Positions 31,589 through 64,000 of a stretch of DNA of 64,000 bases are shown here, piece after piece. A model generated the notes under the pieces. That model saw only the letters and a list, made by a program, of their open reading frames with translations, was not told the DNA's origin and did not search any database. The DNA comes from Candidatus Shapirobacteria bacterium (GTDB lineage Bacteria > Patescibacteriota > Microgenomatia > UBA12405), in the NCBI GenBank assembly GCA_018062705.1, contig JAGORQ010000001.1:21624-85623 (forward strand), read 5' to 3'. How positions within the stretch are numbered: the stretch's first letter is position 1; every line of letters starts with the position of its first letter. Position numbers and translations under genes: made by a program.

Positions 31589-31667
31589 TTTTGGGTTTTA
31601 TTTGGATGTCTTAGAATATAATTTATTATTAATTTAATCAAGTTGGAAGTGTTGTACAATAGTCGGC

Positions 31668-31994
31668 ATGTCAGAAGATATAAGTAAGCAACAGCTGGAG
31701 GCTATATATGCGAATGCGTTTAAACGATTGGGAGAACGATGTGTCCTTAGTCGGTCAGATTTGGCGAAGATAGCTGTTGAAGTTGGTTTAAAAGAAAAAA
31801 GCCTAGGTCCCCAGTTTTTAGAAGCGTCTATTAGAAGCCGTTTCATGGTGGATAATAATAGGCCGTTAACAGTGGTTCTGGTGGGTCAGGAAAGATTACT
31901 GTGGGATAGTCAGTTTCCACTGGAGAGAACAAACATTAGCCAAATAGTTGAGAGAAAGAATGGGGCCAAAAACAGACGGGTGAGAATTTTATAA
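31668..31994 (+). CDS. Hypothetical protein
   Basis: 108-aa ORF with no recognisable motif. Confidence 0.35.
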   Translation: MSEDISKQQLEAIYANAFKRLGERCVLSRSDLAKIAVEVGLKEKSLGPQFLEASIRSRFMVDNNRPLTVVLVGQERLLWDSQFPLERTNISQIVERKNGAKNRRVRIL

Positions 31995-32056
31995 AGATAT
32001 AGGCCTTTTTAATTATTAGATGAAGCTGTCAAGATGCTTTGATATAATCACTGATT

Positions 32057-32908
32057 ATGAAAAAGTTGGCCGGAATAATTTTATTATTGACGGTGTTTTT
32101 TGTTGGTCTATTAAATAGTAAGCATATTTATAGGGCTAAATTGGTGGTGGCTGATGCGCCTGTTGTTCCGACACTTACGCCAACCTTGATACCGACGCCA
32201 TCAATAAAGGTATTATCTTTTGAGGAAATGAATAAATATTATGGTCCTTGCGTGGTGGCGCCAACTCTCATGTACCACCACATTCAACCAGAGGTGGAGG
32301 CAAAAACAAAAGGTCAGGGTGGGCTAAGTATTAGCCCCGACTGGCTTAGAAAACACTTGGAATATCTAAGGATGAACGGCTACACAATAATTGATGCGCA
32401 TGATTTAAATGGTTTTTTTGACAATGGTTTGAAACTGCCAAATAAACCAGTAATTATTACTTGGGACGATGCTTACGAAGACAACTATTCTTTTGCCTTG
32501 CCAATTATTCGAGAACAGGTGGCCAAGGTAACCCTGTTTACACCAACTGGTTTGGTAACTAATCCTGACTATTTGAATTGGGAGCAGATTCGTGAAATGG
32601 CAGGCAGTGGTTTGGTATATTTTGGCAACCACACCTGGTCACACCAGAGCATGAAAACAACTGCTGAGAAAATTAGAGAGGAAATCGGAACAGCCGACAA
32701 ACAGCTTGTAGAGCACGGATTAAATAGTCACAAGGTATTTGCCTACCCATACGGTAGTTATAGTAAACTGGCTGAGGAAGAATTAAAAAGGCTGGGATAT
32801 GGTTTGGCTTTTGGCACTAAGAGTGGAAAAATTTTATGCAAGGGAATGAGGCTAGATTTGCCGAGAGTGAGGGTGGGGAATGCGCCGCTGTCGAGGTATG
32901 GAATATAA
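32057..32908 (+). CDS. Polysaccharide deacetylase (CE4/NodB), secreted; second paralog
   Basis: N-terminal TM, then ITWDDAYEDN ... GNHTWSHQSM motifs. Confidence 0.75.
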   Translation: MKKLAGIILLLTVFFVGLLNSKHIYRAKLVVADAPVVPTLTPTLIPTPSIKVLSFEEMNKYYGPCVVAPTLMYHHIQPEVEAKTKGQGGLSISPDWLRKHLEYLRMNGYTIIDAHDLNGFFDNGLKLPNKPVIITWDDAYEDNYSFALPIIREQVAKVTLFTPTGLVTNPDYLNWEQIREMAGSGLVYFGNHTWSHQSMKTTAEKIREEIGTADKQLVEHGLNSHKVFAYPYGSYSKLAEEELKRLGYGLAFGTKSGKILCKGMRLDLPRVRVGNAPLSRYGI

Positions 32909-32970: not shown

Positions 32971-33114
32971 ATGATATTAAGAAATATTTCTCCGCTAATG
33001 TCTTTGATTTTTGGATTTTTGATTTTGATTAATCCAAAATTGTTGTCGGTGCTGGTGGCAATTTATTTGATTGTTACTGGGCTAATTGGATTGGGTGTGC
33101 TGAGGCTTGGATAA
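32971..33114 (+). CDS. Small (47 aa) two-TM hydrophobic protein, not in the ORF track (below its length cutoff)
   Basis: ATG at 32971, TAA at 33112..33114, translation MILRNISPLMSLIFGFLILINPKLLSVLVAIYLIVTGLIGLGVLRLG. Its 3' end overlaps the convergent gene 33074..34072. Confidence 0.3.
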   Translation: MILRNISPLMSLIFGFLILINPKLLSVLVAIYLIVTGLIGLGVLRLG

Positions 33115-34072
33115 ACTTTTTTTCTAATTTTTCGAGCTTGCGGGTTTTTCGGGCAAGGCTGTTTAATGAATCCTGGGCAGATTGATTTAGCTCATGAGGG
33201 GAGATTAATTTTTCCATAACCTCACTATAATAGTGGTGAAATTCCTGTAACCTTTTTTCTTTGGTACTTGAGTTCCGGGAGTGCCTTAAGGTGGCGATGG
33301 TGCTTTTTGTGAGTCGACGCAAAAATAATATTGCATGGTTAGGCGATAAGGAAGCATAGGCACTTAGATCAGGATTAAAGTCTTGTTTTTCGTAGTGAGA
33401 GACACTAACTCCATACATTCGACCACTAGTAGAGATTACTGTTTTACCTTGGTTTGGCAGATATCCTAGGTTCTGGTAAGCTTGCTCTTCGGATACTGTT
33501 TCACTGATAAATACAGGATAAACTTCGGCGTAGGGTGAGGGGAAATCTTTTTTTGGATTAATAGAGTCACTGATGCCAGGACCAACATAGACGATAGTTT
33601 CACCGGTACTAATTTTATGAAGCTGAGAATCGTGGGGGTCGGGAATTTGACTCTGAAATAGCTCGCAAACTTTTTGTTGACGAAGATTGTTGTCCATTTC
33701 TAGATACTTTGGATGTAAGAAAAAAGCTACGTTGTTAGTAGTCACCAAGGCATCGTTTTCACCCCATATTTCCAATTCATTTGTCTCAATAAATGGTTGT
33801 AGCTCTGTCCAGATTTCTGGACTACAACATAATACAGGAATGGTAAGGTCAATATCTTTGCCTTTGGCCCGATTTTCGGAAATTCCCGGACGAAGGTCGG
33901 CGATAATTGAGCCAATACGGTTGAGGATATGATAAGGACATTTGGGTAAAAGATCTAATAATGGCGCCAGTTTTTCGGGTGCATTAATAGATTCAGGTAA
34001 AGAATTGACCCGATGACCAAGTAAGTGCGTCAAATCTTCATTGATGTTCTGCATAGTTGAGACTATAGCCAC
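33074..34072 (-). CDS. Hypothetical cytoplasmic protein (332 aa), first gene of an uncharacterised three-gene cassette
   Basis: Long ORF with no recognisable domain. Overlaps the downstream regulator gene by 35 nt. Confidence 0.45.
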   Translation of the reverse strand: MAIVSTMQNINEDLTHLLGHRVNSLPESINAPEKLAPLLDLLPKCPYHILNRIGSIIADLRPGISENRAKGKDIDLTIPVLCCSPEIWTELQPFIETNELEIWGENDALVTTNNVAFFLHPKYLEMDNNLRQQKVCELFQSQIPDPHDSQLHKISTGETIVYVGPGISDSINPKKDFPSPYAEVYPVFISETVSEEQAYQNLGYLPNQGKTVISTSGRMYGVSVSHYEKQDFNPDLSAYASLSPNHAILFLRRLTKSTIATLRHSRNSSTKEKRLQEFHHYYSEVMEKLISPHELNQSAQDSLNSLARKTRKLEKLEKKFIQASAHPIQLAQ

Positions 34073-35129
34073 GGCCGCGACTGGTAGAAATTAATGTAGA
34101 TGGTAAGCCAATGTCAACTAACTTTTGACGGAGGCGGGAAATTAATTTGTCGATAGCTGAATCGGAAACTGTAAGAGGATTTTTGTGCCAACAAATTTCA
34201 ATTAACTGATCGCGGTTGATAAATTTTTCTTGAGACATTTTAACCAATAACTCTATTTCGTGCGGGGCAAAATAGCTATTGATTTCTGATTCACCAAGAA
34301 AAATGTTTTTATTTGACGAATCAATTACAAATTTATCGATTACTTTAAAGTTACTTAAAGTATGTGTCAAAGCAAGACTGATAACTTGGTTGGAAGTGTT
34401 GGTTAGTCCTAGTTTTTGAAAGTGAAGTTTGAAATCATCATCTTGTTTGGTAATATTTTTTAGTCTGACAATTTCAGTAACAGGTAACTGGTTGAGAAGC
34501 TTGATGGAGACAGGGTGCAAGTTATTTACTATTTCATCTTCAGATTTGGTTATTAGTGAAAATTCAAAAACCTTTTTGACTAAATAGGGGTAGCCGCCGG
34601 TAACACTTTGAATTTTCTGCAATTGGGCATTGGTGTAGTCAGTTGAAAAACGTTTTGAATAATGCTCAATTAACTCGGGAAATTCACTATTGCCAGCCAA
34701 CGGAAAATAGTCCAACTGTCGAGATGACGCTGATACTCCATACCAATTTGGATTTGAATAAAAATGATAAATAAGGTTGGTGTTTTTGCGGTGCTGATTG
34801 CGAAGCTTTTCAATTAGCTCATAGGTTTCTACACATTTGTTGGAAAACAAAGGAAAATTCTCAATCAAAAAGTAAGTTGGCCGTGAATTATTGTTTAAAC
34901 TAAATTTTTGGTCGAGGTAGTCAGCTAGTTTATCTGGATGAAGGGATATATCAATAATTGACAGTTCGTTTTCTAGCTCGAGCAAATTAAATGCCTCACT
35001 AATAGTTCTTTTGATACCAGACTTTGGTAGTCCGATAAAAAATGAATTCAGACGCTCTTCAATAATTTTTTTTAGTGTATCGGCTGTTGAGGCTACACGG
35101 TAGACAAATTTAATTGGTTGACTGTCCAT
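34038..35129 (-). CDS. Transcriptional regulator: N-terminal P-loop-like/ATPase-like region plus C-terminal OmpR/PhoB-type winged helix
   Basis: C-terminal trans_reg_C signature (LTVSDSAIDKLISRLRQKL...SRGRGYSL). N-terminal degenerate GxxxxGxK (GLPKSGIKRT). Confidence 0.5.
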   Translation of the reverse strand: MDSQPIKFVYRVASTADTLKKIIEERLNSFFIGLPKSGIKRTISEAFNLLELENELSIIDISLHPDKLADYLDQKFSLNNNSRPTYFLIENFPLFSNKCVETYELIEKLRNQHRKNTNLIYHFYSNPNWYGVSASSRQLDYFPLAGNSEFPELIEHYSKRFSTDYTNAQLQKIQSVTGGYPYLVKKVFEFSLITKSEDEIVNNLHPVSIKLLNQLPVTEIVRLKNITKQDDDFKLHFQKLGLTNTSNQVISLALTHTLSNFKVIDKFVIDSSNKNIFLGESEINSYFAPHEIELLVKMSQEKFINRDQLIEICWHKNPLTVSDSAIDKLISRLRQKLVDIGLPSTLISTSRGRGYSLNYAEHQ

Positions 35130-35230
35130 TTAGTAATTCTAGCACGCAGAAAAACAGACAAACTGTGTCAGATAATGTCAGGTAACTATGTAACCTATAA
35201 GTTATATTGTGGTCAATATTTAATTAAATA

Positions 35231-36866
35231 TATGAAGAAATTAATTGAAGGACAAAATATTGGTGAGAAAAAACCAAACCCAGCATTTGAATCTCAGATC
35301 GAAAGGCTGACGTTTTGGGGAAATGTGGAACTGGAGAGATTTGATTTTGTCGATGAAAAATACCTTCAAGGTTTATTTTTAAGTAGTCACTATCAATTAC
35401 TAGACGAAGATGGGAGCGAAATCATTTCTTCTTTAAAGGGTGAGAGATTATTTAGCTTTTTAAAAGATACTACAAAAAACCAATGGCCAACAGAAGTTGT
35501 TGACTTAGCTGAAAATCCGAGTGGAGATTTAGTAGAATTTTTAAGTTCAGAAAATATAGGCGATGAAGAATATGAGAGGATTATAAAGGTCAGCCAGATA
35601 ATGGCTACCAGAGCATACGAAAAAGTTGATAAAACTACGCCTCAAGAAAACAGACTGATTGATAACGGTGTGTCGGTGGCGGATATGGTGATACAAGTAA
35701 TGAATGCAGGGATAGAAAATAAAAACATGTTGCCAATGACGAATGGAAGCTGGAGAAACACAATTATTGATTTGGTTTCATCTGAGGAGCTTGAAGCCTA
35801 TACAAGAAATCTAAATTACGTTGATGGAATATTGGATAACAGAGACTGGTATAAGGATATGGGAATTGACCTACTAAAGAAGAGCCTGACAGAAGAATTA
35901 AGTGGTAGCCCATTACAAAAAACAAAAGAATTAATTGAAATACTGACGATAAGACCTCGGGCAATCACTGATTGTGCAAAAGAATTGATTCACACCACGA
36001 TTAGATATAGTCAAAACGCAAAGTTGATGATGGGAATGTTGGTTAAATACGCCGATTTAGCTCAACAAGATATTGACGGGACAATGAAGATTCCAAATTA
36101 TTGGCACATGTCACAGCTCTTTAAGTATACAAACAATAAAATAGAATCAGGTTTAGCTATTCCTATGGAGCCAGATCAAGGACAATCTTGGGAAGAAACT
36201 GTGATTAAAAATATGAAAAATCCAAATCGGTTCAGAGAAGTGCTAGAAAAATGGAGAAAAAGAGATGATTTAAGTGTTGAACAGGCTTCGGTCGATTTGT
36301 TTTTAGATGGTGCGATTAGGGACGATCTTTCGGTTAATAGTTATCTAAATATATTTAATAACCCTGGACTGATAACAAAATTAATACCAACACTGGAGGC
36401 TTCAGTAAATTATTCCCTTGGAGCTAATAATTTGGCGAGAAAAATATTGCATGTGGCTGAGGCTGGTCAAAGATTCAAAGAAAAAATCAATGCTGGTCTT
36501 AAAGTCGAGGTTGTTGTTTTAAAAGATAACAAGGAAACTATAAAAATTGGTTTAGACCTAGGAAAAGTAAAAGGTAATCTAACCAAAACAATAGATGGAG
36601 CCACCAATCGAAATAGACAAGGCGAATGGTTAAGTGTGACTCCCAATGGTCGGGTACATTTGGCTGTTGGTGAACATACACCGGGAGGAAAACTGTTGAA
36701 CAATGCTTTGGTCTGGAAAGAAATTGGACAAAGAATAAATATGAAACTGAGAATATTGCCAATTGGAAAATCCAGCACCACAAGATATTTGATGGATATC
36801 CCCCAAAATGGCGAATTAGTTGTCAGCAAACCACCACAAGAATGGCGGTTTAGACTTTCTGAATAA
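35231..36866 (+). CDS. Large hypothetical cytoplasmic protein (about 545-580 aa) divergent from the regulator
   Basis: Long ORF with no TM or signal and no recognisable motif. The ORF-track start at 35118 overlaps the divergent gene, so the internal ATG at 35231 (MKKLIEGQ) is preferred. Confidence 0.45.
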
Positions 36867-36918
36867 TGATGACGATTCTCAATACCTTTTTTGAGGTTGT
36901 GGTAAAAATCTAGGGCGA

Positions 36919-37266
36919 TTAGTTTTTTTTAAGTACAAGTTTGCCGTTTTCTATGGTAGCACTATCTGGAACAGCTATCATTGTAACCTTGGTACATTTT
37001 CTAATACCCAGCGCGTGCAACCACGAGTTTCCAGAATAAAAAGTTTCCTTGCATCCTAATTGGTATCTAAACTCATGTGTCCCTCTGAGATTGGGAATAG
37101 GTAACCCACCGTATTCAGCCTCAAGGACTACAAACATCTCAAAATTTTTTACCCGAGCAGAGGAATGGTGGTTAATTTTTGAGTGAGGAACAGTGTCTCC
37201 TGTGGCCAAGAAAGATACAACTTTTTTTTCGTCTGGAACTTCAACAGTGACAAAAGCTTTTGCCAT
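36919..37266 (-). CDS. Hypothetical protein
   Basis: 115-aa ORF. Confidence 0.3.
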   Translation of the reverse strand: MAKAFVTVEVPDEKKVVSFLATGDTVPHSKINHHSSARVKNFEMFVVLEAEYGGLPIPNLRGTHEFRYQLGCKETFYSGNSWLHALGIRKCTKVTMIAVPDSATIENGKLVLKKN

Positions 37267-37305
37267 ATTTCTATGTATTATAAGTCACTATCTCGTTTTA
37301 GTCAA

Positions 37306-38198: not shown

Positions 38199-38346
38199 CG
38201 TCATTGCGATCCGCCAGTTGGCGGAGTGGCAATCCCAACGAGATTGCTTCGTCCCCTTCGGCTACGCTCAGGGTCCTCGCAATGACCCTTCGACTTCGCT
38301 CACAATCCTCGTTATAACCCTTCGACTTCGCTCAGGGTTATAACGT
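38199..38346. repeat. Family C composite element in a divergent promoter region; includes a duplicated CTTCGACTTCGCTCA(G/C) submodule
   Basis: gtcattgcga...ggcaatcccaacgagattgcttcg...cctcgcaatgacc, then two copies of cttcgacttcgctca. Confidence 0.5.
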
Positions 38347-38351
38347 ATTAT

Positions 38352-39614
38352 ATGGTTATGAAAATATGGTGGATTTTGCTAATTTGTCTGGGAATTAGAC
38401 TTATAGGAATTAATCAATCGTTGTGGCTAGATGAGGCAATATCGGCCAATGTAGCCAAGAATTTTTCCTACCAAGAAATACTGACAAAATTTAGTCCGGG
38501 AGATTTTCACCCGCCAGGATATTATCTGATGTTGAAAACTTGGGGAAGTATTTTTGGTTATTCGGAAATTAGCTTAAGACTAACGTCGGTAATATTTAGT
38601 TTAATAACGATTTATGTGGTTTATTTACTGGGAGGATCGGCTGGTGCAATGCTGGTTGGATTTAATCCCCTGTTAGTGTATTACTCGCAAGAAGTGAGAA
38701 TGTACTCGATGGTGACCATGTGGCTAACTTTGGCGATCTATTTTTTGATAAAAGAAAAATATTGGCTAGTGGGACTATTTTTTGGATTGGCGTTTGGGAC
38801 GTTTTACGGGTCGGTATTTTTGATGGTGGCGGTGTTTATCTATTTAATTGTTAATAAAAAATATAAACCGGCAGGAATCGTAACAATAGTTCCATTGATA
38901 TTCTTGCTAATTATATGGCCATTGATGAGTCAACAACTTCAAAATTCAAAGGTGATGTTGGCCACAGTGTCGGGCTGGAGCCTTGTGCTAGGAAAAGTAA
39001 ATCTGAAAAATTTATTGTTGATTCCGATGAAATTTACGTCGGGGAGAATCAGCTTTTATCCAAAGATTATTTATTATGTTTTGGCGGGAGGATGGTCTAT
39101 ATTTGTGTTTTTTAAAGTGCTTAGTGCTAAGTTCAAAGTGCAAAGCAAAATCTATAGTTTTTTGTTTTGGACTACGTTGGCAATCGGGGTGGTGTTTTCG
39201 ATATTTACCCCTATGTTTGAGTATTTTAGATTTTTGTACTTGATACCAATTATGGCGCTAGCAATAGGGAAAAATAAACTGATAGCCGGAGGGTTTTTGG
39301 CGTGGAGTTTGGTGTATGTACTAAACCCGAGTTTTTATCGAGAAGATTGGAAGAGTGTGGTGGCAGAGTTATCGAAAGACCAACCAGTTTACATGATCAA
39401 ATCATTTGAAGATCCGGTGAGTTATTACAATCTAGATTTAAGATATAAGACGTATGATTTAAGAATAGAACCGAAAGAAAATAGAATAACGGTAATACCC
39501 TATGGTGAGGAGATACATGGAGTGAACCATGTTAAATTGATGGAAAAACAGGGTTATAAAATGGTTGACCAAAAAAATTATCGAGGATTGGTGAGTGAAT
39601 CTTGGAGTCGGTGA
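38352..39614 (+). CDS. GT-C fold glycosyltransferase (GT39/GT83, PMT/ArnT-like) membrane protein
   Basis: DE motif in the first periplasmic loop (LWLDEAISANV) and about 11 TM helices. A family D repeat lies in-frame near the C-terminus. Confidence 0.6.
   Translation: MVMKIWWILLICLGIRLIGINQSLWLDEAISANVAKNFSYQEILTKFSPGDFHPPGYYLMLKTWGSIFGYSEISLRLTSVIFSLITIYVVYLLGGSAGAMLVGFNPLLVYYSQEVRMYSMVTMWLTLAIYFLIKEKYWLVGLFFGLAFGTFYGSVFLMVAVFIYLIVNKKYKPAGIVTIVPLIFLLIIWPLMSQQLQNSKVMLATVSGWSLVLGKVNLKNLLLIPMKFTSGRISFYPKIIYYVLAGGWSIFVFFKVLSAKFKVQSKIYSFLFWTTLAIGVVFSIFTPMFEYFRFLYLIPIMALAIGKNKLIAGGFLAWSLVYVLNPSFYREDWKSVVAELSKDQPVYMIKSFEDPVSYYNLDLRYKTYDLRIEPKENRITVIPYGEEIHGVNHVKLMEKQGYKMVDQKNYRGLVSESWSR
39432..39472. 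repeat. Family D element in-frame inside the GT39 gene (encodes LDLRYKTYDLRIEP)
   Basis: tagatttaagatataagacgtatgatttaagaatagaacc. Confidence 0.55.
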
Positions 39615-58652: not shown

Positions 58653-59144
58653 ATGATAATAACTGACATAAATGGTAGCCAACGAGAGTGTGTGGAAACA
58701 CGAATTGACCCGCAATATCCAGGTTTTGTGACGGTGGTATATGCCTCAAAAAACCGACCGGGGGATAAACATGTGGAATGGTATCCGATGGAAGAGTTTA
58801 TGAAGCTGAACCCGGAAGTGGTGACAGTTCTGGGTGGTATGCCAAACACACCAAAGGATGATTTGGGGGTAGTGACCCACGCCGGAGAGATGTACATGGA
58901 GGATACAAAAAAAGATTGGCAAACAAATATCTATGTGGGATTTTATGTTTGGATTTCTCGAGGAGAGGGGGAGGCTCAGGTGCGCTTAATTAAAAGTAAT
59001 AGTAAAAACACATTAACAATAGATAGGGTGTGGGATAAGGTGCCCAACACAACCTCACAGTATGTGATTTCACATAATATTCATGATGTTAAAATATTAG
59101 GTAACGAATTGCCGACTATAAATTTACAAAAAACAAATCAATAA
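58653..59144 (+). CDS. Hypothetical protein
   Basis: 163-aa ORF in the same operon. Confidence 0.4.
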   Translation: MIITDINGSQRECVETRIDPQYPGFVTVVYASKNRPGDKHVEWYPMEEFMKLNPEVVTVLGGMPNTPKDDLGVVTHAGEMYMEDTKKDWQTNIYVGFYVWISRGEGEAQVRLIKSNSKNTLTIDRVWDKVPNTTSQYVISHNIHDVKILGNELPTINLQKTNQ

Positions 59145-60069: not shown

Positions 60070-60119
60070 AGACTGGTGTCTGATAAGTTGAGTTTGGCTT
60101 GCTATAATTTTGGTATCAC

Positions 60120-63100
60120 ATGGCCACGATTACAATGTACAACAGCATCAATATTGATGATGCATTTTCTCCAACTTTCGTTGCCATTGGTTATGGAGTG
60201 ACATCTGGATCATCAACTGCCGACACGACAGGAGCGTGGACTGCTCGGACTTTACCTTCATCATCAAATTGGAATTCTGTTTGTTATGGCAACAAACAAA
60301 TCGTCGCTGTCTCTGGCTCGACCACTGTTGCCGCTACAAGTCCAACTGGTGTTACCTGGACTGCACGTTCCTTGCCAGTTAGTGCTGTTTGGCAGTCGGT
60401 AGTTTATGGTACTCGCTTTGTCGCTATCGCCAATGGATCAACTGATACTGCCTATTCTGTGGACGGAATTAGTTGGACTAGTGGAGGTGCCCTTCCTAGC
60501 TCCGCCGCTTGGTTTTGTTTGGCTTATGGTGAGGGGACCTATGTTGCTGTTTCAACTACATCTTCTACTGCCGCCGCTTATTCAACTGATGCCGGCACAA
60601 GTTGGAACAGTGCTACTCTGCCGGCAACAGGCAATTGGCAATCAGTTACTTATGGCAACGGCACCTTTGTCGCCGTTGCTTATGGTGGAACTGATGCTGC
60701 TTATTCCGCCGATGGCACCACTTGGAATACTGCCACTTTACCCAGTTCTCAAAATTGGTCCAGTGTCACTTGGGGTAATCCAGGCAATACTGCTAACGGT
60801 GTTTTTGTTGCTGTTGCCTATGGTACGGCCATTGGAGCTATTTCCACCAATAATGGTGCCACTTGGACGCAGGTTTCCCTGGCTCCAGACGTGGTTGTAA
60901 ATGGTAGTTTTACAGGAAATGCTGATGGGTGGACTCTTGGTGCTGGTTGGACCTATGGTACCAACAATGTTGTCCATACATCAGGCACGGCTACCATCAC
61001 CCCCAACCCCGCCTTAACAATCGTTGCTGCTACTCAATACGAAGTTACCTATACTATTTCAGGATGTAGCAGTGGTTCAATTACTGCCAGAATTGGCAAC
61101 GTCAATGGTACTGCCAGGTCAACTAATGGCACCTATGTCGAAGTCATCACATCATCAAACACCAACAGCTTGATACTTACTCCTACTACTGATTTTGACG
61201 GAGCTATCGATGATATTAAAGTTCGCTATTCTGCCAACTGGAACTGTATTAGTTATGGAGAAATTTCTGCCCAAGGAGTTAAAGTGTTTACTGTTACTCC
61301 CTATGGACAGGCATTTACCGCAGTTTCCTTTGATGGTACTAACTGGTTTACCAAAACAATATCATCGGCTGCCAACTGGAAATATCACTGCTATGCCCCA
61401 GTAACTTGGAATTCAGGAGACACCCTCTCGATTCAAAATAATGCCACAATTACTGTTAATACAAACCAAACAAAATTTTGGAAAACTTTTACTGCCACTT
61501 ACGGTCAGCTTTCAATTCAAAATTCCAGTACCTCAGCCCCCATTGGCTTTTATATGGGGCGTGTTTCCGCAGCTACTGCCAACGATATTACCCCACTTTC
61601 TGGTGCTTTTAATATTGATATAGATGGTAACTGGATACAAATAGGAACTGGAACTGGTATCGCCGGACAGACCGTAACCGCTTCATTTTCAGAATATATT
61701 CCCAGTTTATGGATCGAGACTGGCAGTGGTACTGGCGTTTATGAAATTTGGAACAATATTACTGGTGCTACCGGTAATTACATGAATTTATTTGGTAAAG
61801 ATGGTCTTGAGTGGGCGGGGAGTGGTAAACAAGGGAACTACTTTGTTCAGACTCCAGCAACTAATCCCACTGAAATATTATCCTTATCTTCTGGTGCCAC
61901 TACCAATCAGTCTTATTTTGTAACGTGTACAGATACTACAGGTGTTTTGCCAGGTGCGTATATTACAGGAACCAATATTCCAGCAAACACGGTTGTTAAT
62001 AAAGTTGTTGATGGCACTACCCTCGAATTAAATGTTGTGTGCACTGCCACTGGTTCTGCATATACTTTTACTGTTTACAACCCTGTTCAATCTCAATGGA
62101 CAACTACAATTGTTTTTGGTAATGGAACCAATGGTAATTTGGTTCCCAGTGGTGCCAAAATTAGACAACCAAATATTTTAATTAGTGATATCACTAATGC
62201 TTCAATTTTGGGAGCCAATCATACAACTCAGGCTTACATTAATATGGGTAATGGTGGTCTAATAGATGCACGAATTTGTCTGTTTGGTGAGTCTTATGTA
62301 AATTTTGCCCAAGCGGCATCTGTTTACTTACGTAATGTTGGGTTTGCCTATCAATGGGCACTTTCAGAGTGTTACTCAGTAGATATGGATGGTATTGGCA
62401 ACGCCGCCAATCCTACTGTTTGGTATTATTCGGGTCAATGGATTATTCGAGACCCTCGTTATGGAATCTTGCCACCTTTTGGCTATACTGCATCTTCAGC
62501 CACAAGCAATGTTTCTATTTCCTACGTCCATAATGCAACTATAAAAAACTGGCACAAAGTAGTTTATTGTTCGGCTTATTTTACAGGCACTTCAATTCTG
62601 ATGCCAATCGACCTGTCATACACTGACGATGCTGTATTTGAAAATATTCGCTCTGTAGTCCTCATGCCACATCGTGCCATCCGCTGTTTTAATATTAGTG
62701 CTCGGGTGTATCGTACCACTTTTACCAACCTTGAGCTTTATGGTGCGAACCCTCTTCAAGTCGCCACCAGTGACAACAATACTTTTGCCGGCATAGAGTA
62801 CTCACTTGATATGTTTAAGCCTATAGTGGCCTTCAAATCAAATCATCGCTTGTCCCAGAAAGCTGATGGCACTCTACTTTCTGACAATGTTCCTGTTTAT
62901 ATAAAAACTCGAACATTTTTTTCTTGGGCGACTCGGGATATGTATTTTGAGTCGGGTGAGTACAGTGCCACTCCTTTTCAAAACAATTGGCTTTTTCCCG
63001 ACATAATTTCTGTCCGACCTACCGAATCTGTCCCTGCATCCGTTACTTTTAACTGGACACAGAGGGAACCTACCGCCGCCACCACCACTGCCTATGAAAT

Positions 63101-64000
63101 TCATAGATCAACATCTGAAGGTTTTACGGCTCGAAATACTGCCACAGCAGTTTTTCGTATTGCCACACCAGCCACAGTTACTTATGCAAATAGTCCCACT
63201 ACACCGGTTGTTGCCGGTGCCCCAAATCTTACATTTAATGTCAACAAGACTATTACAGCAGCATCGGCAATTTGGACTGCAAATGGCTTTGCTGTTGGAG
63301 ACGTGGTCGAAGTGACGGGAACTGTGGCTAATAATGGCACTTACACAATTACTACCCTAACTACTACGGTGATGACGGTCATGGAAACACTGGTTACTGA
63401 AGCAACTTATACTAGCGGTGCTACCGTTACAGGACGACCCCCGACATTAGACACCAAATATTACTACCGCATGCGCAAATTCCACAGCATTACGGCACAC
63501 GTAGACTGTTCTGTTGCTAGCGGTTCTACAACCATGACGTGTTCTAATATCAACACCAACTGGGGGTTTGACAAATTATATGCCGCCAAAGATTTTTATT
63601 ACGATTCTGGCTCTACTGTTATTCGCAACCGAAAATACAATTTATTTGCACTACCTTATTATCTTGGAGCCACCATTACTGGCCCTGGCATTCCCGCAGG
63701 CACAACTATTACTTATATAGACGCGGCCGGACAAAAATATAATATTAGTCAGGCGACCACATCGGCGCAGACAAATGCTACTGTCACTCTTCCAATTCAA
63801 GCTGGCATGGCAGTGGTTTGGCAAATAAACAGACCAGGAGAAGGGCTCCCTTACGGAAATACTGTTGCCAGTGTTGAAAGTGCAACTAGTCTGACCCTGA
63901 ATCAAGCTGCAACCGCTGATATTGCCTATCTTTCCAATGGTTCTTTTACTGGAAATGCTGATGGTTGGACTTTAACAGCTGGTTGGGCTTATGGAAGTAA
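60120..64000 (+). CDS. Giant BNR/Asp-box-repeat surface protein with Thr/Ser/Asn/Gly-rich beta-rich repeats (>1290 aa; 3' end beyond the window)
   Basis: Open frame from ATG 60120 (or 60135) to the window end with no stop. Absent from the ORF track because it is edge-truncated. Six ~45-aa N-terminal repeats each carry an Asp-box (YSVDGISW, YSTDAGTSW, YSADGTTW...) and W.SV.YGNG.FVAV. The internal motif LSNGSFTGNADGWTLxAGWxYG recurs about 3 kb apart (60895 and 63935). Confidence 0.7.
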   Translation, partial: MATITMYNSINIDDAFSPTFVAIGYGVTSGSSTADTTGAWTARTLPSSSNWNSVCYGNKQIVAVSGSTTVAATSPTGVTWTARSLPVSAVWQSVVYGTRFVAIANGSTDTAYSVDGISWTSGGALPSSAAWFCLAYGEGTYVAVSTTSSTAAAYSTDAGTSWNSATLPATGNWQSVTYGNGTFVAVAYGGTDAAYSADGTTWNTATLPSSQNWSSVTWGNPGNTANGVFVAVAYGTAIGAISTNNGATWTQVSLAPDVVVNGSFTGNADGWTLGAGWTYGTNNVVHTSGTATITPNPALTIVAATQYEVTYTISGCSSGSITARIGNVNGTARSTNGTYVEVITSSNTNSLILTPTTDFDGAIDDIKVRYSANWNCISYGEISAQGVKVFTVTPYGQAFTAVSFDGTNWFTKTISSAANWKYHCYAPVTWNSGDTLSIQNNATITVNTNQTKFWKTFTATYGQLSIQNSSTSAPIGFYMGRVSAATANDITPLSGAFNIDIDGNWIQIGTGTGIAGQTVTASFSEYIPSLWIETGSGTGVYEIWNNITGATGNYMNLFGKDGLEWAGSGKQGNYFVQTPATNPTEILSLSSGATTNQSYFVTCTDTTGVLPGAYITGTNIPANTVVNKVVDGTTLELNVVCTATGSAYTFTVYNPVQSQWTTTIVFGNGTNGNLVPSGAKIRQPNILISDITNASILGANHTTQAYINMGNGGLIDARICLFGESYVNFAQAASVYLRNVGFAYQWALSECYSVDMDGIGNAANPTVWYYSGQWIIRDPRYGILPPFGYTASSATSNVSISYVHNATIKNWHKVVYCSAYFTGTSILMPIDLSYTDDAVFENIRSVVLMPHRAIRCFNISARVYRTTFTNLELYGANPLQVATSDNNTFAGIEYSLDMFKPIVAFKSNHRLSQKADGTLLSDNVPVYIKTRTFFSWATRDMYFESGEYSATPFQNNWLFPDIISVRPTESVPASVTFNWTQREPTAATTTAYEIHRSTSEGFTARNTATAVFRIATPATVTYANSPTTPVVAGAPNLTFNVNKTITAASAIWTANGFAVGDVVEVTGTVANNGTYTITTLTTTVMTVMETLVTEATYTSGATVTGRPPTLDTKYYYRMRKFHSITAHVDCSVASGSTTMTCSNINTNWGFDKLYAAKDFYYDSGSTVIRNRKYNLFALPYYLGATITGPGIPAGTTITYIDAAGQKYNISQATTSAQTNATVTLPIQAGMAVVWQINRPGEGLPYGNTVASVESATSLTLNQAATADIAYLSNGSFTGNADGWTLTAGWAYGS

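Follow-up and report, generated by a model that had tools for sequence, protein, structure and literature searches.

A conserved two-gene operon pairing a predicted STAND-like, receiver-less OmpR/PhoB-type regulator with an orphan protein beside a variable gene slot in Candidatus Shapirobacteria

A stretch of 64,000 nucleotides (nt) from a Candidatus Shapirobacteria bacterium (contig JAGORQ010000001.1 of assembly GCA_018062705.1; hereafter the window, to whose 64 kb all coordinates refer) carries, on a contig of low GC content (~39%), a 363-aa transcriptional regulator (R), a 326-aa orphan protein (A) whose gene overlaps that of R, and a divergently transcribed 544-aa orphan (B, or B544). Comparison of related sequences indicates that the conserved unit at this locus is the two-gene operon R-A with its upstream non-coding DNA. 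R combines an OmpR/PhoB-type DNA-binding domain with an N-terminal region that models as a nucleoside triphosphatase (NTPase) of the STAND/AAA+ kind, and A accompanies it in every lineage in which the pair could be inspected, whereas the genes on the other side of the shared promoter region change from genome to genome. Feature coordinates are collected in Table 1.

The original prediction had drawn three open reading frames (ORFs) at 33074-34072 (-), 34038-35129 (-), and 35118-36866 (+). All three are real at these positions, and R is as it had been described, with a degenerate P-loop and an OmpR-type winged helix-turn-helix (wHTH); the other two genes require shorter models. The first was taken to encode 332 aa and to overlap R by 35 nt. 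The operon with overlapping frames stands, but translation of A more likely starts at the ATG at 34054, since this start matches both the NCBI model and the alignment of orthologues, and the overlap is then 17 nt; an overlap of 35 nt results only if the upstream GTG is used. Similarly, the gene of about 580 aa is a divergent orphan, as had been stated, but encodes 544 aa from the ATG at 35232 rather than 582 aa (the NCBI model is the same), 102 nt from R, and the first 38 codons of the longer frame are conserved intergenic DNA. The proposal that the proteins are cytoplasmic agrees with the prediction that A, R, and B are all soluble (maximum Kyte-Doolittle value below 1.0 in any 19-residue window), and the two orphans do lack recognisable domains in Pfam, NCBIfam, PADLOC, and PHROGs.

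The C-terminal part of R, which NCBI names a winged helix-turn-helix transcriptional regulator, is matched by Pfam PF00486 (Trans_reg_C) over residues 291-357 with 43.8 bits against a cut-off of 26.2 (E 2.7e-11), and two orthologues, P0002 (48% identity) and P0003 (44%), likewise score above the threshold of this model. The topology of the domain, an N-terminal four-stranded sheet followed by three helices and a C-terminal hairpin wing, is that of the OmpR/PhoB type, and a profile built on the three R sequences, when searched against the PDB, returned OmpR-family DNA-binding domains only. The NCBIfam response-regulator models PhoB, RpaB, and CreB reach only residues 235-361 of R and remain far under their cut-offs, the best of these partial matches being to PhoB, and no receiver domain was detected in R (no Pfam Response_reg match at E up to 10). 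R belongs to the OmpR/PhoB family of DNA-binding domains but is no response regulator. It should be noted that JGI labels P0002 (7669-8739 of the related locus L001) as a transcription initiation factor IIE alpha subunit; the label is apparently an artefact of annotation, since P0002 matches only Trans_reg_C and, below threshold, AAA_35.

The N-terminus of R models as a P-loop NTPase. In an AlphaFold2 model computed from a three-sequence alignment (predicted local distance difference test, pLDDT, 80.4; predicted template modelling score, pTM, 0.79), a five-stranded alpha/beta core is followed by a helical domain, as is typical of the STAND type, and then by the canonical topology of the OmpR DNA-binding domain. 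Structures listed with this model, with their values in brackets, include plant NLRs (11.0-12.6), PAB2304 (11.6), SSO1545 (10.4), Cdc6/ORC (about 10.7), and Avs5 (10.7). The P-loop lies between a predicted strand (residues 29-32) and a helix (residues 39-49), and its sequence is invariant across the three R proteins but departs from the canonical GxxxxGK[ST] of Walker A by one residue inserted before the lysine. At the position of Walker B, the strand formed by residues 85-90 ends in L88-I-E90-N91, a pattern of the form hhhEN in which asparagine replaces the second acidic residue; L88, E90, and N91 are again invariant in the three proteins. No STAND-family profile in Pfam scored above threshold for R. 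Matches to PF14516 (AAA_35) under the cut-off (13-16 bits against 27) recur in all three R proteins over an invariant TGGxPYL motif of the helical domain. Further, R has no C-terminal repeat sensor of the TPR, WD40, LRR, or SUPR kind, the wHTH ending the protein at residue 363, and no match to the BTAD domain in Pfam. Judged from the model, R joins a minimal STAND-like switch to an OmpR DNA-binding domain, and the altered Walker motifs (GLPxSGIKRT and hhhEN) suggest switching by ligand state rather than turnover of ATP.

At every A homologue for which upstream DNA is available, the R gene, or the part of it encoding the C-terminus of R, lies directly upstream and overlaps the start of A. This count covers six lineages in which A is 25-52% identical, and the overlap measures 17 nt in the window and in L007/L010, 8 nt in L001-L004 and in L008, 4 nt in L005, and 20 nt in L011. 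Neither gene was found without the other wherever adjoining DNA was available. The neighbourhood is also kept throughout: on the A side lies RarA/MgsA, together with a polysaccharide deacetylase or a DnaJ-domain gene, and beyond the R side lie genes for a DUF4349 protein, HSP20, a pseudouridine synthase, and a PD-(D/E)XK protein. That the pair occupies the same syntenic position in every lineage argues for vertical inheritance rather than for carriage on a mobile island, and the comparison points to R-A being a lineage-specific core pair. Within it, A diverges faster than R (for the same genomes compared, identity is about 30% in A and 44-48% in R).

A belongs to no described family. A word-indexed protein search recovered a single relative, at 52% identity; among GTDB species representatives there is one homologue, in Shapirobacteria UBA2283, and JGI metagenomes contribute one further contig. 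Exhaustive scanning of 1.84 billion representatives with HMMER yielded only five relatives. The alignment of the family comprises six members that are 25-52% identical to the window protein. The orthologues at 25-34% identity were missed by the word-indexed search and recovered by tblastn on syntenic loci and by the exhaustive scan, and calls of ORFans from word-indexed searching alone, including that of B544, are therefore weaker than they look. No recognisable domain occurs consistently in A when up to six members are compared with Pfam, NCBIfam, PADLOC, and PHROGs, and a profile of the family found nothing in the PDB. An AlphaFold2 model of A is poor (pLDDT 48), and fold searches with it gave generic helical bundles only. 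Weak single matches to McrBC, FTA4, a sigma-70 region, HEC-01B, Cas6, and HopBF1 were rejected because each was confined to one member. Invariant positions (P0004 numbering) are G48, D67, D69, P73, W82, G151-E152, G197, L199-P200, S237-P238, H240-A241, L245-R246-R247, and K250, which define the motifs D67-x-D69, GYLP, and SPxHAxxxLRRxxK and are accompanied by a basic C-terminal helical region. Taken together, these residues are catalytic-looking and loosely recall the signature of Pol-beta nucleotidyltransferases.

The DNA between R and the divergent gene was compared in the window, L001, and L005. Its most conspicuous element is a tandem direct repeat, CTGTGTCAGATAATGTCAGG (TGTCAG-ATAA-TGTCAG, with a 10-bp period), which is a candidate operator for R and is identical at 20 of 20 positions in L001 and at 18 of 20 in L005, while its flanks have diverged. 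The exact sequence TGACANNNNCTGACA occurs once in 64 kb and in one copy per related locus, always upstream of R. There are no further exact copies of the operator in the window, and sites with one or two mismatches occur there at chance level (18 observed versus 14 expected), so that the only copy with one mismatch, TGATAATAACTGACA at 58654-58668 (+), which sits at the start of an ORF at 58653-59144, is probably fortuitous. Toward the divergent gene, the repeat is followed at a fixed spacing of 12 nt, identical in all three sequences although the letters of the spacer differ, by a TATA-rich block, CCTATAAGTTATATT; the distance from the repeat to the start codon of R, in contrast, varies (42 versus 60 nt). 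In the same direction, the repeat overlaps the -35 position, the predicted -10 (TATAAG/TATATT) lies 14 nt downstream, and TAATGT, at the site expected for the -35 hexamer, is a poor match; PhoB- and PmrA-type promoters that depend on an activator are laid out in this way. On the R side, the extended -10-like element TGCTAGAAT stands 6 nt ahead of the start codon in the window and in L005, and TGATAATAT stands 7 nt ahead in L001. No Shine-Dalgarno sequence precedes R and, given the position of the -10-like element, the R-A mRNA would be leaderless.

Within the 38 codons ahead of 35232 lies a block of DNA that is conserved even where the divergent gene differs entirely. A stop in the L001 frame and interlineage substitutions at first codon positions led to the rejection of a coding function for this block, which is thus regulatory DNA and not protein, and the absence of an Rfam match led to the rejection of an RNA.

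B544 behaves differently from the pair. A word-indexed search of 5.8 billion proteins returned only B544 itself, at a sensitivity that missed A orthologues of 30% identity, and the protein has no domain in Pfam, NCBIfam, PADLOC, or PHROGs, no phage match, and no counterpart in L001 or L005, the two relatives in which that flank is known. The slot between the DUF4349 gene and R spans 35232-37266 in the window, 5336-7542 in L001, and 4579-7859 in L005. In L001 (UBA2283), it holds five small orphan genes directed away from R; in L005, its contents are a Pro/Thr-rich protein with a membrane anchor and a 180-aa orphan, followed by an SDR and an MFS transporter. The window slot also contains C115, which has no family match in library scans and no counterpart in L001 or L005. 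Neither tblastn nor phmmer --max detected similarity among the slot genes, B544, and C115, and an origin of B544 by fusion or fission of the small L001 genes was rejected on this ground. The promoter region beside R is conserved in all lineages compared while the slot genes change. The GC content at third codon positions (GC3) of B is 0.31, that of R and B being only mildly lower, and no meaningful direct or inverted repeats that would mark a mobile element were found around the slot. From these comparisons, B544 is best regarded as a genome-specific passenger outside the conserved R-A unit.

These observations are best joined in a model that we favour tentatively, in which the NTPase-like module, and probably A, set the state of R, and R, once on the repeats, governs the divergent promoter, its own promoter, or both. 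R would be a one-component factor in which a STAND/AAA+-like nucleotide-binding module, rather than a phospho-receiver, drives a C-terminal OmpR/PhoB wHTH. A head-to-tail dimer of R would occupy the tandem repeat at 35163-35182. Since this site overlaps what would be the -35 of the divergent promoter, the bound dimer would be expected to switch that promoter on, and with it whichever gene fills the slot (B544 here, other orphans in relatives). R would probably also tune its own leaderless R-A transcript, from which the overlapping stop and start codons would yield A in fixed proportion to R. A would most likely act on R as a sensor or co-regulator, taking the role of the input domain that full-length STAND proteins have in cis, so that both A and the ligand state of the altered NTPase module would determine whether R is on or off.

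Several points weigh against this model. The assignment of the NTPase fold to R comes from an AlphaFold2 model built on only three sequences, the altered P-loop may have no ligand at all, and the intergenic comparison comprises three independent upstream sequences. The invariant D-x-D, E, H, R-R, and K of A look like the residues of an enzyme more than those of a passive sensor. The period of the repeat is 10 bp, as opposed to 11 bp in PHO boxes, and some other factor could occupy it. On the R strand, the repeat resembles a -35 hexamer (CTGACA) with no -10 at a usable distance, and the geometry is also compatible with autorepression, with TATAAC as the R-strand -10 and the repeat downstream of it as a roadblock. 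Finally, a -10-like TTTAAT lies 7 nt ahead of the ATG of B544, which makes the promoter assignment of this gene uncertain.

Among the alternatives, it is conceivable, though doubtful, that R only autoregulates, that A is an unrelated housekeeping protein on the same transcript, and that the divergent promoter is constitutive with the TATA-rich block as its -10. Autoregulation is common among OmpR-family proteins, and the repeat lies 42-60 nt upstream of the R start codon; such an arrangement, however, fits poorly with the strict linkage of R and A through overlapping codons in six lineages, and with the fact that the distance kept constant is that from the repeat to the TATA block, whereas that from the repeat to R is variable. 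A second alternative gives A an enzymatic role, possibly that of a highly divergent nucleotidyltransferase of the Pol-beta type, with its nucleotide product or modification as the signal that the altered P-loop of R reads, so that the operon would be a self-contained pair of synthase and receptor. In its favour are an hG[S/N] motif (G48), D67-x-D69 within hDhDhhhP, and G151-E152 about 83 residues later, as well as a C-terminal helical bundle bearing the invariant H240, R246, R247, and K250, and the phosphate-loop-like motif of R is strongly conserved though non-canonical. However, none of the nucleotidyltransferase families in Pfam, NCBIfam, or PADLOC matched any of the six members at E values up to 5-10, nothing was found in the PDB, and an hhalign comparison with Escherichia coli Cca gave a probability of 2%. 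Moreover, G48 and the DxD are separated by 18-24 residues as opposed to the usual 9-13, N replaces the expected S/G in three of the six members, and the low-confidence model led only to helical bundles. We consider this synthase-receptor circuit unlikely, and the fuller version, in which A founds a new enzyme family, possibly of divergent nucleotidyltransferases, and its product or modification is read by the R P-loop, slightly more so; in that version R-A would be a signalling circuit complete in one operon, confined so far to this lineage, and would drive a conserved promoter behind which the lineages have placed different orphan genes.

It is very unlikely that R-A is a toxin-antitoxin or abortive-infection pair like AbiE or MenAT, with R as autorepressor and A as a nucleotidyltransferase-like toxin. 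The gene order would fit, with a DNA-binding protein first and an overlapping gene of ~330 aa second, and so would conserved repeats upstream of the operon and the DxD of A. Against this, there is no match to AbiEi, AbiEii, MenT, or any other such family in PADLOC or Pfam, the wHTH of R is of the OmpR type and C-terminal, and the distance of the repeat is fixed relative to the divergent TATA block and not to the R promoter. Toxin-antitoxin modules spread patchily by mobility, which is the opposite of what R-A displays: the pair is single-copy in the window, holds one syntenic position in lineages down to 44% R identity, and is missing from collections of plasmids, phages, and viruses. Least probable of all, and in our estimation extremely unlikely, is the reading of the original prediction, in which the divergent protein of 544/582 aa works together with R and A in a single three-gene cassette such as a defence system. 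B is divergent, lies 102 nt from R, and adjoins the conserved promoter region, so R may regulate it in this genome. However, a check of co-conservation found R and A conserved together and B not: B is without a detected relative, and unrelated genes fill the slot in L001 and L005. The suggestion of a defence module also fails, as no component matches a defence family, no relatives were found in viral contigs, phages, or plasmids, and synteny is fixed. PADLOC-DB 2.0 gave nothing significant for A, R, B, C115, or the slot genes, the best match being to HEC-01B (E 0.03) in one member. A PADLOC match to PD-T4-6 (E 1.6e-4) covers residues 24-128 of a 264-aa protein of L005, including its stretch that is hydrophobic and rich in Pro and Thr, and none of the slot genes of L001 or L005 matches defence models convincingly. 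There is no evidence that points to phage defence.

Comparison with known systems helps to place the favoured regulatory model. By functional analogy, R would be closest to AfsR and other large SARPs and to MalT, which are STAND switches that drive transcription, and its modelled structure appears to lie nearest to those of Orc1/Cdc6 and the ATPase_2 proteins of archaea. AfsR of Streptomyces, a large SARP of ~1000 aa, has an N-terminal wHTH, a BTAD domain, a canonical NB-ARC, and a TPR sensor, whereas R, at 363 aa, has a C-terminal wHTH, no BTAD match, no repeat sensor, and non-canonical Walker A and B motifs. E. coli MalT (901 aa) couples an NTPase switch with a canonical P-loop to a large SUPR sensor domain and a C-terminal DNA-binding domain of the LuxR HTH type, and activates promoters through repeated boxes. 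Its NTPase module is acted upon by the separate partners MalK, MalY, and Aes, a possible analogy for A; no sequence similarity between R and MalT was found. The winged helices of PAB2304 and SSO1545 (Pfam ATPase_2) and of Orc1/Cdc6 are not of the OmpR/PhoB type and their Walker motifs are canonical, and R has no Pfam-level match to these proteins. With AbiE and MenA/MenT, R-A shares the layout of an overlapping two-gene operon in which a DNA-binding autoregulator precedes a protein of ~300 aa, the latter being a GS...DxD nucleotidyltransferase in the known systems. It differs from them in lacking sequence or profile similarity, in the type and position of its wHTH, and in its vertical inheritance at one position.

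With PhoB, PmrA, and PhoP, R has in common a bona fide OmpR/PhoB DNA-binding domain, and the candidate operator resembles PHO and PmrA boxes in being a tandem TGTCA-type direct repeat over the -35 position. The core of the E. coli PHO box is CTGTCAT (PMC4415409), one account of PhoP describes its target as 7-bp repeats with a 4-bp spacer (PMC4832192), and in one account of PmrA its box takes the place of the -35 element (PMC10570014). Unlike these three regulators, R has no receiver domain and no phospho-acceptor, and no histidine kinase gene adjoins the operon.

In the candidate phyla radiation, to which Shapirobacteria belong, genomes are tiny and encode few regulators that can be recognised, and almost no knowledge exists of how these bacteria sense signals. 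R would represent a compact one-component design in which a STAND-like switch and an OmpR/PhoB DNA-binding domain are joined in the reverse order to AfsR-type proteins at about one third of their size, and its candidate operator is amenable to in vitro work without culturing the organism. The A family, with about six known members that are nevertheless strictly tied to R, may offer a partner for studying how STAND proteins without a sensor are controlled. If the slot is indeed regulated, a conserved regulator and promoter beside changing genes would be a small example of control elements that persist while the genes they serve are replaced. Practical importance is limited, the pair being confined to a handful of metagenome-assembled genomes.

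Table 1. Features of the R-A locus and -10-like sites near it in the window; a figure after a plus sign is the distance in nt from the hexamer to the start codon.
Feature	Coordinates	Strand	Description
A	33074..34054	(-)	326-aa orphan; ORF; NCBI hypothetical protein KBC75_00330, 326 aa
A, alternative start	GTG at 34072	(-)	332 aa
R	34038..35129	(-)	363-aa receiver-less OmpR/PhoB-type regulator with STAND/AAA+-like N-terminal module (predicted)
OmpR/PhoB winged-helix DNA-binding domain of R	34050..34343	(-)	~aa 263-360
STAND/AAA+-like NTPase module of R (predicted)	34350..35102	(-)	~aa 10-260; five-stranded alpha/beta core and helical domain
Non-canonical P-loop of R	35004..35033	(-)	G33-L-P-x-S-G38-I-K40-R-T42, invariant across three R proteins
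Extended -10-like element TGCTAGAAT	35136..35144	(-)	candidate promoter of leaderless R-A mRNA
Tandem direct repeat CTGTGTCAGATAATGTCAGG	35163..35182	(+)	candidate R operator
TATA-rich block CCTATAAGTTATATT	35194..35208	(+)	candidate -10 of divergent promoter
B (B544)	35232..36866	(+)	544-aa genome-specific orphan; variable gene, outside conserved module
C115	36919..37266	(-)	115-aa ORF; only in this genome's version of the R-DUF4349 variable slot
-10-like site, TACAAT+7	31650-31667		ORF at 31668
-10-like site, TATAAT+8	32040-32056		ORF at 32057
-10-like site, TAGAAT+6	35130-35144	(-)	ORF at 35129
-10-like site, TATAAT+10	37267-37285	(-)	ORF at 37266
-10-like site, TATAAC+7	38335-38351		ORF at 38352

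Many genes of the window lack a Shine-Dalgarno sequence and have instead, 6-10 nt ahead of the start codon, a -10-like hexamer (Table 1), which suggests frequent use of leaderless mRNAs in this Shapirobacteria genome. Neither a tRNA nor an Rfam family was found in the window or in the region studied. At the right end of the window, one ORF of at least 1297 codons (~60110-64000, (+)) runs out of the sequence and presumably encodes a giant protein. Over the same interval, GC content is raised (0.43-0.45), and GC skew, steadily positive throughout the preceding 60 kb, becomes negative only here.

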